64,000 nt of DNA, from assembly GCF_003018255.1 (NCBI RefSeq), contig NZ_CP027440.1; one strand, given 5' to 3'. The notes beneath the pieces were generated by a model. The model was not told the origin of the DNA. It saw only the letters and a list, made by a program, of their open reading frames with translations, and did not search any database. Below are positions 20,831-62,387 of the stretch, one piece after another. The position numbers and the translations under genes are program-made. The stretch comes from Escherichia coli. Its GTDB lineage: Bacteria > Pseudomonadota > Gammaproteobacteria > Enterobacterales > Enterobacteriaceae. The first letter of the stretch is position 1. Each line of letters begins with the position of its first letter.

Positions 20831-22432
20831 TCAGGATACCACTGGCGCAATTTGTAACTGCGCCGACTCATGTCGTGCTACTTCATGCTCTTCAAGGGTA
20901 AATACCGCCACGCGCGACGAAAGATGGTCGGCCTGATTCGCCAGTTGTTCTGTTGCCACCGCCGCTTCTTCTACCAGGGAGGCGTTCTGCTGTGTCACCT
21001 GATCCATCTGGCTGACAGCCTGTGCAACCTGCTCAATCCCCCGCCGTTGTTCTTCCGAGGCCGAAGCAATTTCTCCCATAATGTCGTTCACGCGGGTCAC
21101 CGAACTGACAATATCAGTCATGGTCGCGGCGGCGTTATTCACCAGTTTCGAACCCTGCTGGACACGATTGACTGACTCTTCGATCAGCCCTTTGATCTCT
21201 TTTGCTGCCTGGGCGCTACGGCTGGCAAGATTGCGCACTTCACCTGCCACTACCGCAAAACCACGCCCCTGCTCTCCGGCGCGAGCCGCTTCCACTGCCG
21301 CATTCAGGGCCAGAATATTGGTCTGGAAAGCAATGCCGTCGATAACGCTGATAATGTCGCCAATTTTTTGCGAGCTGGTAGCGATCTCCTGCATGGTGTG
21401 AGTCATGGTACTGACCTGAACACCGCCCGCCTGCGCCGTTGTCGCGGCATTTTTTGCCAGTTCCGACGCCTGTCGTGCGTTATCGGCGTTTTGCCCTACC
21501 GTGGCGGTTAATTGCTCCATACTGGCGGCCGTTTGTGCCAGCGATGCCGCCTGCTGTTCGGTGCGACTTGAGAGATCGTTATTGCCTGCGACAATCTCCG
21601 CGATACCAATGTGCATCTCCTGGCTTCCCTTACGCACATCACTTACCGTCCCACGCAAAGCCTGCTGCATGGTCTTCAGGCTGGCAAAAATGGCGGTGAT
21701 CTCATTGCGACCATACACCGCAATCGGACGTGCCAGATTACCCGCAGCAATGCTGTCAAAATGGCTACCGATAATGGCCAGTGGTTGAACAATCATCTTG
21801 CGCGTCCACCACAGCGCACTGCTGATGTAGATCGCCGCAACAATAATCATGCTGATAAACACCAGCGCCGAAATGTGATAGTTACGCTGGCTTTGCGCAC
21901 TGGCACTTTCCAGCACATGGTTGATCTCCAGCTGCCAGGCCTCAAAGTTAACGTCAAACGCATTCTGTGATTCCTGCACCGGCGCAGTGAGGAAATCCGA
22001 AAGTTGATTACTTTCAAGCCAGGTCGCCTGATGTTCGAGATCGTTGTGCCAGCGGGCAAAACTTTTCTCCGTCTCTTTTTGCAACGCCCTGACGTGCTCG
22101 TTGCCCGCAGTCATCGCCATAAAACTTTTAAACAGCGTGGTGGATTGCGTCAGACTGGCGCGCGCCGTCGTCATCAACGTTTTAATGTCATCCGCCGGAT
22201 AGCTAAGCGCCGTCAGAGTGCCCGCTTTGTTCAGCGCGGTACTGGCCTGTAACATTACCGCCCGAGTTTGCGCTAATGCCGCACGTTGCTGATTGCTCTG
22301 CTCGACCTGATTCAGTCGTTGCAAATCGTCGCGAAATGCCCAAAAAGACATGCCGTTACTGCCAATCTGCAAGATCCCGCAGAGAATCAAAATTAAAAAC
22401 AGCGTGGTCGAAATTCGAATACGATTAAACAT
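20831..22432 (-). CDS. tap: Methyl-accepting chemotaxis protein IV (dipeptide/pyrimidine receptor)
   Basis: 533 aa from MFNRIRISTTLFL; two TM segments, HAMP, conserved MCP signalling domain ([26 protein letters not shown]). Confidence 0.95.
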   Translation of the reverse strand: MFNRIRISTTLFLILILCGILQIGSNGMSFWAFRDDLQRLNQVEQSNQQRAALAQTRAVMLQASTALNKAGTLTALSYPADDIKTLMTTARASLTQSTTLFKSFMAMTAGNEHVRALQKETEKSFARWHNDLEHQATWLESNQLSDFLTAPVQESQNAFDVNFEAWQLEINHVLESASAQSQRNYHISALVFISMIIVAAIYISSALWWTRKMIVQPLAIIGSHFDSIAAGNLARPIAVYGRNEITAIFASLKTMQQALRGTVSDVRKGSQEMHIGIAEIVAGNNDLSSRTEQQAASLAQTAASMEQLTATVGQNADNARQASELAKNAATTAQAGGVQVSTMTHTMQEIATSSQKIGDIISVIDGIAFQTNILALNAAVEAARAGEQGRGFAVVAGEVRNLASRSAQAAKEIKGLIEESVNRVQQGSKLVNNAAATMTDIVSSVTRVNDIMGEIASASEEQRRGIEQVAQAVSQMDQVTQQNASLVEEAAVATEQLANQADHLSSRVAVFTLEEHEVARHESAQLQIAPVVS

Positions 22433-22477
22433 CAACGCTCCCCATCAGGCGGCAATGACCGCGTTAGTAAATACTCG

Positions 22478-59180: not shown

Positions 59181-60386
59181 ATGTCATGGCAGCAATTCAA
59201 ACACGCCTGGTTGATTAAATTCTGGGCCCCCATCCCTGCGGTCATCGCGGCGGGTATTCTCTCCACTTACTACTTTGGCATCACTGGCACCTTTTGGGCT
59301 GTCACGGGTGAATTTACCCGCTGGGGCGGTCAGCTTCTGCAGCTGTTCGGCGTCCATGCTGAAGAGTGGGGTTATTTTAAAATTATCCATCTGGAAGGAT
59401 CGCCATTAACCCGCATCGACGGCATGATGATCCTCGGTATGTTTGGCGGCTGCTTTGCTGCAGCGCTGTGGGCCAACAATGTCAAACTACGCATGCCACG
59501 CAGCCGTATCCGCATTATGCAGGCCATTATTGGCGGCATTATCGCTGGTTTTGGCGCGCGTCTGGCAATGGGCTGTAACCTGGCGGCGTTCTTTACCGGC
59601 ATTCCTCAGTTCTCGCTGCATGCCTGGTTCTTTGCCATCGCCACTGCCATTGGTTCATGGTTTGGCGCGCGCTTTACCCTGCTGCCCATCTTCCGTATTC
59701 CCGTGAAAATGCAGAAAGTTTCTGCCGCCTCACCGCTGACGCAAAAACCGGATCAGGCGCGGCGTCGTTTTCGTCTCGGGATGCTGGTCTTTTTCGGCAT
59801 GCTGGGCTGGGCGCTGCTCACGGCGATGAACCAACCAAAACTGGGGCTGGCAATGCTGTTTGGCGTCGGCTTTGGTTTACTGATTGAACGTGCGCAAATC
59901 TGCTTTACTTCGGCGTTCCGCGATATGTGGATCACCGGACGTACCCATATGGCGAAAGCAATCATTATCGGTATGGCGGTGAGTGCCATCGGGATCTTCA
60001 GTTACGTACAGTTAGGCGTTGAACCTAAAATCATGTGGGCGGGACCAAATGCGGTAATTGGTGGTTTACTTTTTGGTTTTGGCATCGTGCTGGCAGGCGG
60101 CTGCGAAACCGGCTGGATGTACCGCGCGGTAGAAGGCCAGGTGCACTACTGGTGGGTCGGTCTGGGCAACGTGATCGGCTCAACGATTCTGGCGTATTAC
60201 TGGGATGATTTCGCTCCGGCGCTGGCCACCGACTGGGACAAAATCAACCTGCTGAAAACCTTTGGTCCGATGGGTGGCCTGCTGGTGACATATTTGCTGT
60301 TGTTTGCAGCTCTAATGTTGATTATCGGCTGGGAAAAACGCTTCTTCCGCCGTGCGGCACCGCAGATTGCTAAGGAGATCGCATGA
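59181..60386 (+). CDS. yedE: YeeE/YedE-family inner membrane transporter (proposed selenium/sulfur compound transport)
   Basis: 401 aa polytopic membrane protein with duplicated conserved Cys-containing segments (GGCETGW); operonic with the TusA-like yedF. Confidence 0.88.
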   Translation: MSWQQFKHAWLIKFWAPIPAVIAAGILSTYYFGITGTFWAVTGEFTRWGGQLLQLFGVHAEEWGYFKIIHLEGSPLTRIDGMMILGMFGGCFAAALWANNVKLRMPRSRIRIMQAIIGGIIAGFGARLAMGCNLAAFFTGIPQFSLHAWFFAIATAIGSWFGARFTLLPIFRIPVKMQKVSAASPLTQKPDQARRRFRLGMLVFFGMLGWALLTAMNQPKLGLAMLFGVGFGLLIERAQICFTSAFRDMWITGRTHMAKAIIIGMAVSAIGIFSYVQLGVEPKIMWAGPNAVIGGLLFGFGIVLAGGCETGWMYRAVEGQVHYWWVGLGNVIGSTILAYYWDDFAPALATDWDKINLLKTFGPMGGLLVTYLLLFAALMLIIGWEKRFFRRAAPQIAKEIA

Positions 60387-60616
60387 AAAATATCGTTCCT
60401 GATTACCGTCTTGATATGGTGGGTGAACCCTGCCCTTATCCGGCTGTCGCAACCCTTGAGGCGATGCCGCAGTTAAAAAAAGGGGAGATCCTGGAAGTGG
60501 TGAGCGACTGTCCGCAGTCGATCAATAATATTCCACTGGATGCGCGTAATCACGGCTATACGGTGCTGGATATTCAGCAAGACGGGCCGACCATTCGTTA
60601 TTTAATTCAGAAGTAA
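60383..60616 (+). CDS. yedF: TusA-like sulfurtransferase-fold protein YedF
   Basis: 77 aa with the CPxP motif (GEPCPYP); start overlaps the yedE stop. Confidence 0.9.
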   Translation: MKNIVPDYRLDMVGEPCPYPAVATLEAMPQLKKGEILEVVSDCPQSINNIPLDARNHGYTVLDIQQDGPTIRYLIQK

Positions 60617-60724
60617 TCCCTCATTCCCGCTGTGGCCCACAGCGGGAACATCGTTACCACTCTATCACATAGATTTTACCCGCCCCCTCTCCTATTCTTT
60701 TCAGTGTGCTCTCAGGAGGTTTCT

Positions 60725-61393
60725 ATGTGTGGACGCTTTGCCCAATCCCAAACGCGTGAAGATTACCTCGCGTTTCTCGCGGAAGATATTGAACGCGATA
60801 TTCCCTACGATCCCGAACCTATTGGCAGATACAACGTCGCGCCGGGAACCAAAGTCCTTCTGCTCAGTGAACGTGATGAACACCTTCATCTGGATCCGGT
60901 TTTCTGGGGATATGCTCCCGGATGGTGGGATAAACCGCCGCTGATTAACGCCCGCGTAGAAACTGCCGCAACCAGTCGCATGTTTAAACCGCTCTGGCAA
61001 CACGGTCGGGCAATCTGTTTTGCCGATGGCTGGTTTGAGTGGAAAAAAGAAGGCGACAAAAAACAGCCTTATTTTATCTATCGCGCTGACGGACAACCTG
61101 TTTTTATGGCCGCGATAGGTAGCACACCGTTTGAGCGTGGTGACGAAGCCGAAGGATTTTTGATCGTCACTGCGGCGGCAGATCAAGGTCTGGTAGATAT
61201 TCATGACCGCCGCCCGCTGGTTCTGTCGCCAGAAGCTGTACGGGAATGGATGCGGCAAGAGGTTGGCGGTAAAGAAGCCTCAGAAATTGCTGCCAGTGGC
61301 TGTGTGCCAGCAAACCAGTTCACCTGGCACCCGGTATCGTGCGCGGTGGGTAATGTTAAAAACCAGGGAGCGGCGTTAATTCAACCTGTTTGA
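60725..61393 (+). CDS. yedK: SOS-response associated peptidase (SRAP) YedK; abasic-site DNA-protein crosslinking enzyme
   Basis: Real start MCGRFAQ at 60725, preceded by SD aggaggt at 60714-60720; the ORF-track start at 60632 is an upstream extension; 222 aa. Confidence 0.93.
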   Translation: MCGRFAQSQTREDYLAFLAEDIERDIPYDPEPIGRYNVAPGTKVLLLSERDEHLHLDPVFWGYAPGWWDKPPLINARVETAATSRMFKPLWQHGRAICFADGWFEWKKEGDKKQPYFIYRADGQPVFMAAIGSTPFERGDEAEGFLIVTAAADQGLVDIHDRRPLVLSPEAVREWMRQEVGGKEASEIAASGCVPANQFTWHPVSCAVGNVKNQGAALIQPV

Positions 61394-61503
61394 TAAGCCT
61401 GGAGATTATTGATCAACAATACTGCGTCATAAGAAATCTCTATTAGACAAAGATTTCAGTACCTGTTGGCATATTGCAAAAATAACACCAATACGGAATC
61501 GTC

Positions 61504-61983
61504 ATGTTCACGATTAAAACAGATGATCTCACCCATCCAGCAGTGCAAGCATTAGTGGCTTACCATATTTCCGGCATGCTGCAGCAGTCTCCCCCCGAAA
61601 GTAGTCATGCTTTAGATGTGCAAAAATTACGTAACCCGAAAGTGACATTCTGGTCAGTATGGGAAGGCGAACAACTCGCAGGAATTGGTGCGCTGAAGTT
61701 GCTGGATGATAAACATGGCGAACTGAAATCAATGCGTACCGCGCCAAATTATTTACGTCGGGGTGTCGCCAGTCTGATTTTACGCCACATTTTGCAGGTC
61801 GCCCATGACAGATGCCTTCATCGCCTGAGCTTAGAAACGGGTACACAGGCTGGATTTACGGCCTGCCATCAACTTTATTTGAAACATGGATTCGTTGATT
61901 GCGAACCGTTTGCTGATTATCAACTTGATCCGCACAGTCGATTTTTGTCATTGACGCTATGCGAAAATAATGAATTGCCATGA
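61504..61983 (+). CDS. yedL: GNAT-family N-acetyltransferase YedL
   Basis: 159 aa with acetyl-CoA binding motif (RRGVASLILRHIL). Confidence 0.88.
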   Translation: MFTIKTDDLTHPAVQALVAYHISGMLQQSPPESSHALDVQKLRNPKVTFWSVWEGEQLAGIGALKLLDDKHGELKSMRTAPNYLRRGVASLILRHILQVAHDRCLHRLSLETGTQAGFTACHQLYLKHGFVDCEPFADYQLDPHSRFLSLTLCENNELP

Positions 61984-62032: not shown

Positions 62033-62387
62033 ATCAGCCGCAAATGTCTTGTCCTTAGACGCTCTTTCCACATGCGCCACAAGAAACCTCTATTCCAGTG
62101 ACACAATTATGCCTGATTATTTCCCTAGCCCGGAATATGAATAAAAACATCAAATAAGATGAAATTATCAAAATATTAATGTTGCGTCTGAGGTCGTAAC
62201 AACATCCGACGTGGTGATATGTCAAATGAGACACTCTGATGGTCAAAGGGTTTATCGCGTTTACAGATCGTGGATGGCAGAAAACTTTCAGAATCAGGTT
62301 TCCATTTTAAACCAGAAATTAAGTGAGTTTGTCCCATCCATGCCCCACGCGGTGAGATCGGATGTAATCAACAACAGGTTACAAAAC

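Follow-up and report, generated by a model that had tools for sequence, protein, structure and literature searches.

In the Escherichia coli DNA analysed here, a stretch of 64,000 nucleotides referred to below as the window, the gene yedK can be read from more than one in-frame start codon, and the locus raises the question of which of them is used and what the DNA ahead of it does. A mechanical list of open reading frames gives 60632..61393, a product of 253 aa beginning at a GTG and carrying 31 codons beyond the 222-aa form that begins at ATG 60725. A preliminary description of this DNA had considered the 31-residue extension very unlikely to be real, and this judgement is borne out, as all independent lines of evidence agree on ATG 60725. 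We regard it as almost certain that yedK is translated from this codon by way of the Shine-Dalgarno (SD) sequence AGGAGGT, with Cys2 exposed, and that positions 60632-60724 are untranslated control DNA. This start is already the one used by public annotation, and in this respect the result is correct, ordinary and known.

Locus layout and origin of the long reading frame

The features of the locus, all on the plus strand, are the following.

60383..60616 (+): yedF coding sequence; its TAA at 60614-60616 is the in-frame stop bounding the mechanical yedK frame
60624..60648 (+): perfect 12-bp inverted repeat, TTCCCGCTGTGG C CCACAGCGGGAA, with GTG 60632 in its left arm
60632..60724 (+): 31-codon "extension" of the reading-frame list, read here as non-coding intergenic DNA
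60666..60707 (+): putative equivalent, by transfer of coordinates, of the site affecting expression in K-12 in Reg-Seq (ATG-59 to ATG-18; PMC7567609)
60692..60698 (+): sigma-S-like -10, CTATTCT (-13C plus TAnnnT), matching the CTATACT of other genera
60704..60709 (+): in-frame GTG 60704 without SD, followed by the codon TGC (60707-60709), which is TGA in ~78% of complete E. coli genomes
60714..60720 (+): SD sequence AGGAGGT, -12.0 kcal/mol, with conserved GGAGG; given as AGGAGGU in PMC9841429
60725..60730 (+): true start ATG and Cys2 codon TGT, according to annotation, profile, structures and homologues
60725..61393 (+): yedK coding sequence (222 aa and a stop codon), encoding an abasic-site crosslinking protein of the SRAP family

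The coordinates given in the preliminary description were exact: GTG at 60632-60634, AGGAGGT at 60714-60720, and ATG at 60725-60727 followed by TGT GGA CGC TTT (MCGRF). The gene lies between yedF and yedL, as it does in K-12. Because yedF and yedK share one reading frame, the upstream boundary of the long frame is the TAA of yedF, and the listing rule, which takes the first ATG, GTG or TTG after a stop, then begins the frame at GTG 60632. That the frame is open up to yedK at all in this strain is due only to the C at 60709, which makes TGC of the codon at 60707-60709 in place of the A of an in-frame TGA; the K-12-type sequence has TGA here. Upstream extensions of this kind are common, being found in 20 of 51 annotated genes over 50 kb of a genome with 99.6% identity and reaching at least 10 aa in 12 of them. 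The long yedK frame is thus a routine by-product of the listing rule and is unremarkable.

Two other features of the surroundings may be recorded here. In a near-identical genome, tap, encoding methyl-accepting chemotaxis protein IV (window ~20834-22435), contains an internal stop and is annotated as a pseudogene, and between yedL and fliE (window ~62223-62363) there is a short integrase fragment.

Translation start of yedK

The preliminary description had noted a strong SD sequence before MCGRF and had suggested that the ribosome-binding sites of the two candidate starts be scored. This scoring agrees with it: the duplex with the anti-SD sequence has an energy of -12.0 kcal/mol at ATG 60725, against -1.5 kcal/mol at GTG 60632 and -0.3 kcal/mol at a third in-frame codon, GTG 60704. 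The value at the ATG is within the top 0.8% of all 6,237 ATG, GTG and TTG triplets in the window and ranks fourth among 51 annotated gene starts, whereas that at GTG 60632 is weaker than 82% of the same 6,237 triplets. AGGAGG and the ATG are separated by 5 nt, and the GGAGG core is conserved at 85-96% per position in 73 non-redundant loci. In a published survey, yedK is listed with the SD sequence AGGAGGU and an aligned spacing of 13 (PMC9841429). The SD sequence, 5 nt upstream, directs initiation at ATG 60725.

The RefSeq/PGAP annotation places the start of yedK at the equivalent of window position 60725 in four strains, namely a genome identical over the region, O157:H7 TW14359, Nissle 1917 (which has the open-frame allele) and a laboratory strain; two of these four carry the open TGC allele. 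All 214 positions of the Pfam SRAP profile (PF02586) are matched, the first of them by Met32 of the long frame, and the extension adds nothing to the match (175.5 bits with it, 176.2 bits without it). The 222-aa form matches the profile with an E-value of 8.7e-52 and 176.2 bits, the curated cut-off being 27.1. The YedK chains in the PDB entries 6NUA and 6KBS begin at the cysteine that corresponds to Cys33 of the long frame.

The start of yedK reads ATGTGTG (60725-60731) and contains two out-of-frame GTG triplets, at 60727 and 60729, which open frames of 10 and 71 aa, respectively. The gene is among those described as AUGUG genes, with no predicted ambiguity and an abundance of 0.176 ppm (PMC9841429). 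Separately, an 8-bp inverted repeat, CACATAGA / TCTATGTG, is found at 60666-60673 and 60722-60729; pairing of its arms could engage the yedK start codon with a stretch lying 48 nt further upstream. The predicted fold includes this pairing, the repeat is kept in all three other E. coli sequences used for comparison, and its upstream arm lies inside the "repressor-like" Reg-Seq site. It may nevertheless be due to chance, as ~0.3 such pairs are expected per 200 nt.

Distribution of the upstream extension

An alignment with homologues had been proposed in order to see whether any N-terminal extension is conserved, and none is. The N-terminus is Met-Cys in 118 of the 120 best homologues; of the other two, one is N-terminally truncated and one (P0031) is extended by a leader unrelated to that of the window. 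When the 253-aa form is used as the query, its coverage does not exceed 89% in any of these 120 homologues, the 222-aa form alone corresponding to 87.7%. At the DNA level, the in-frame stretch upstream of MCGRF is variable in both length and sequence among 80 loci from other species, often with a stop 4-5 codons upstream of MCGRF and usually with no upstream start codon.

Within E. coli, the codon at 60707-60709 separates the open from the closed alleles. The window has TGC at this place; O157, a laboratory strain and an E. coli-like contig have TGA. We searched complete genomes with 55-mers centred on position 60709, such that every 28-nt seed includes that base. The TGC allele was found in 1,166 complete E. 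coli genomes and TGA in at least 4,185, the latter as two haplotypes of 3,281 and 904 complete genomes; the TGC class and the two TGA classes are mutually exclusive by construction and together cover 5,351 of the 5,377 genomes having the locus. A fourth 55-mer haplotype (GTG TGA TCT) had an exact match in no genome, and its hits, which overlap the other TGA classes, were left out of the counts. In ~78% of complete E. coli genomes, therefore, a TGA interrupts the frame five codons ahead of the ATG, and the long frame is impossible there. Records of the exact 222-aa protein come from at least 1,000 contigs, and the 253-aa form does not occur among ~15 billion called proteins.

The pattern of substitution also differs between the two segments. 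Between the window and O157, 24 of the 31 differences within yedK fall at third codon positions, while 4 of the 6 differences within the extension, a small number for such a comparison, fall at codon positions 1 or 2; of the remaining two, one is the change between stop and sense.

In every row examined of the haplotype with 904 complete genomes (GTG TGA CCT), yedK is annotated as a C-terminally truncated pseudogene of ~142 codons, and functional YedK may therefore be missing from a sizeable part of E. coli. In strain 7/2, the one locus of this haplotype inspected (L086 1544-2799, corresponding approximately to window 60725-61150), yedK adjoins a fragment of a helix-turn-helix gene and an IS200/IS605 transposase.

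The N-terminal cysteine and the YedK protein

The preliminary description identified Cys2 as the crosslinking nucleophile, in agreement with published work, in which the alpha-amine of Cys2 is the initial nucleophile and the residue joins a thiazolidine ring (PMC9436759, PMC6821365). In this ring, C1' of the abasic site has two bonds to Cys2, one to its alpha-amino nitrogen and one to its thiol (PMC6821365). Substitution of the cysteine (C2A) brings crosslinking down to background, and the N-terminus of YedK occupies a central position in the DNA-binding groove (PMC6821365), while reaction of the N-terminal cysteine with formaldehyde prevents crosslinking (PMC9436759). The loss of Met1 has been verified by mass spectrometry of recombinant YedK; active-site mutants also lose it, and its removal is therefore ascribed to an aminopeptidase and not to autoproteolysis (PMC9436759). 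An unprocessed extension is thus incompatible with a catalytic Cys2, and for a stronger reason than the "burying" of the residue that had been put forward: any residue before Cys2 would make its amine an amide, so that one of the two reacting groups itself would be lost and the reaction abolished.

K-12 YedK (PDB 6NUA, 6KBS, 2ICU) also has 222 aa and an MCGRF N-terminus, and it is identical to the window protein at 213 of 222 positions, the nine differences being L17F, F116Y, I126V, A172V, I180V, S181G, S200T, R206C and E217A. Cys2, Asn75, Glu105 and His160, the last three with roles described in PMC9436759 and PMC6821365, are all at their K-12 positions, and the DNA contacts Arg4, Pro40, Arg77, Trp106, Lys113 and Asn210 are kept. 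The exception is codon 206 (window 61340-61342), which encodes Cys instead of the Arg of K-12, a residue reported to contact the phosphate backbone of the DNA (PMC6821365). By pattern match among the 120 homologues, residue 206 is Arg in 85 and Cys in 9, with 29 not placed. The gene is E. coli yedK of the SRAP family, having every defining feature that could be tested, with one DNA-contact residue differing (R206C).

Given its 96% identity to K-12 YedK, the window protein would be expected to lose Met1 in vivo and to form a thiazolidine crosslink with abasic single-stranded DNA. Methionine aminopeptidase would take off Met1 and leave Cys2 as the extreme N-terminus, and the free alpha-amine and thiol of Cys2 would then close the thiazolidine on the aldehyde of the abasic site in single-stranded DNA. 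The human protein HMCES, with 29% identity to YedK and a C-terminal extension, belongs to the same fold family and shares the Cys2 thiazolidine chemistry (PMC9436759). Its SRAP domain is detectable by sequence (E 3e-16), and its N-terminus, like that of YedK, is Met-Cys without a leader.

The hairpin after yedF

The 93 nt from 60632 to 60724 belong to the yedF-yedK intergenic region, with a hairpin, a sigma-S-type -10 and the ribosome-binding site. The hairpin (60624-60648) starts 8 nt past the yedF stop and is a perfect 12-bp palindrome; as RNA it has an 11-bp stem with a folding energy of -20.5 kcal/mol (z -4.7 versus shuffled sequences), and GTG 60632 is base-paired in its left arm. The only variant of the hairpin seen in E. 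coli, G/A at 60635, lies in the loop. Franconibacter has a different GC-rich hairpin at the equivalent place, followed by CCCTATACT.

The segment has the GC-rich stem-loop of an intrinsic terminator. It has no U-tract, the stem being followed by CAUCGUUACC, and a terminator scan gave no report of it; it is therefore not filed here as a canonical intrinsic terminator. A Rfam scan of 60300-61600 (E<=1) returned no match, and the hairpin thus belongs to no described RNA family. It is probably the 3'-end or a stabilising hairpin of the yedEF message, with a putative terminator function, and would mark the 3' end of that message. Since there is no U-tract, read-through yedEF transcripts carrying GTG 60632 may exist.

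A candidate stationary-phase promoter

Downstream of the hairpin, CTATTCT (60692-60698) has the T-12, A-11, T-7 and -13C of a sigma-S -10 element, a promoter class in which the -35 is weak or absent. A strict sigma-70 consensus scan did not find a promoter in this place, and the -10 was seen only through cross-species comparison. When information content was computed from loci anchored on the ATG, indels blurred the motif, and re-anchoring on the hexamer resolved it. An exact TATACT is present, 27 to 37 nt ahead of the ATG, in 61 of the 76 other-genus loci that were usable (59 distinct sequences; loci L004-L082), although these loci are phylogenetically related and such counts overstate the number of independent events. 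The hexamer is preceded by C and followed by T in 95% of these loci each, and no conserved -35 appears when the other-genus loci are aligned on it. The distance from TATACT to the ATG falls in all three classes modulo 3 (44, 12 and 5 loci), which fits a promoter element, unlike a coding sequence. Among the 80 loci from other species, yedF is located upstream in only three, two of them from Franconibacter and the third an E. coli-like contig, Franconibacter being the only other genus in which yedF precedes yedK. Most loci with the motif are thus not beside yedF, and the -10 motif therefore travels with the gene.

The published sigma-S -10 consensus is CTATACT, the C being at -13 (PMC5650638, PMC10301672). 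The -13C and TATACT of the 61 related loci, with no conserved -35, resemble sigma-S promoters (CTATACT / KCTAYRCTTAA), while the TATTCT hexamer of E. coli yedK itself departs from the TATACT of this consensus at the R position. The use of the candidate motif by RpoS, to which these likenesses point, may hold for the window. Published expression data are in line with it. In the stationary phase of strain EDL933, yedK is within the top 100 RpoS-dependent genes, with a ratio of wild type to rpoS mutant of 43 in a microarray (PMC2907692). At the transition to stationary phase in O157 Sakai, yedK changed by +2.55 log2, yedE by -2.15 and yedF by -2.78 (PMC2241611); the rise of yedK while yedE and yedF fall argues for its separate transcription. 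In Reg-Seq, yedK had no mapped start site and its origin was set arbitrarily, and a site at ATG-59 to ATG-18 affects its expression (PMC7567609).

At sigma-S-dependent promoters transcription starts 6-8 nt downstream of the -10, and from the position of the candidate -10 that of yedK is predicted to start at ~60704-60707. If this -10 is real, a yedK-specific transcript would begin there and would therefore be without GTG 60632. A sigma-S-type -10 probably drives yedK separately in stationary phase. Control of yedK by the SOS response through LexA is not supported, as the 150 nt ahead of the window's ATG contain no LexA box (CTGT-N8-ACAG, one mismatch allowed); a single weak match was found among the 80 loci.

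We incline, by a narrow margin, to the broader reading that the 93 nt carry a gene-proximal RpoS-type promoter kept with yedK-family genes across unrelated contexts in the Enterobacteriaceae. In enteric bacteria YedK would then be a general-stress, stationary-phase shield for abasic sites, with its gene transcribed apart from yedEF and not an SOS gene.

Alternative starts and products

The long frame could have a meaning of its own if, in strains with the TGC allele, the 253-aa product were a pro-form whose 31-residue leader is cleaved to expose the cysteine, as in N-terminal-nucleophile enzymes; such a protein would be ~3.4 kDa heavier and would yield the leader peptides MAHSGNIVTTLSHR. The frame is indeed open from 60632, with TGC at 60707-60709 in 1,166 complete genomes, an original proposal, cited in PMC6821365, held the family to which YedK belongs to be autoproteolytic, and read-through mRNA past a hairpin without U-tract could carry GTG 60632. 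Nevertheless, this GTG has no SD sequence (-1.5 kcal/mol, worse than 82% of start triplets) and is paired within the 11-bp stem, and the leader, broken by TGA in ~78% of E. coli genomes, is conserved in no other genus examined, as a propeptide should be. No gene caller has ever called the 253-aa form in ~15 billion proteins, and the loss of Met1 in active-site mutants points to an aminopeptidase and away from autoproteolysis (PMC9436759). We consider the pro-form to have practically no chance of being correct.

The same standing is given to initiation at the in-frame GTG 60704, a possibility that we hold to be vanishingly small, even though it would produce MCSQEVS-MCGRF..., in which a 7-residue extension also begins with Met-Cys owing to the Cys codon that comes next in the window's strain. 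The SD duplex at this codon is only -0.3 kcal/mol, the codon that follows is TGA in most E. coli, and GTG 60704 is itself GTA in O157 and in the laboratory strain. It would also be at or upstream of the predicted 5' end of the transcript, and the Pfam profile and the solved structures put the catalytic cysteine at the next Met-Cys. Somewhat less improbable, while still very unlikely, is additional out-of-frame initiation at GUG 60727 or 60729 within the AUGUGUG start, giving short overlapping products besides YedK. The sequence ATGTGTG and the 10-aa and 71-aa frames are present, and initiation of this kind has been described for certain genes of E. coli (PMC9841429); the same study, however, lists yedK with the SD AGGAGGU at an aligned spacing of 13 and predicts no ambiguity for it, and such products would add to the ATG start and not replace it. 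Translation from ATG 60725 is thus the reading that we retain.

Implications for yedK and the SRAP family

These results confirm current annotation practice, in which yedK is taken from its ATG and the long frame is to be ignored. They also illustrate that a "longest ORF" rule can yield a protein that could not work chemically, as SRAP proteins need the free alpha-amine of Cys2. Together, the hairpin, the sigma-S-like -10, the SD sequence and the published expression data suggest that YedK is a stationary-phase protein uncoupled from the selenium genes yedEF, with a candidate sigma-S-type -10 attached to a gene family that is named for the SOS response.
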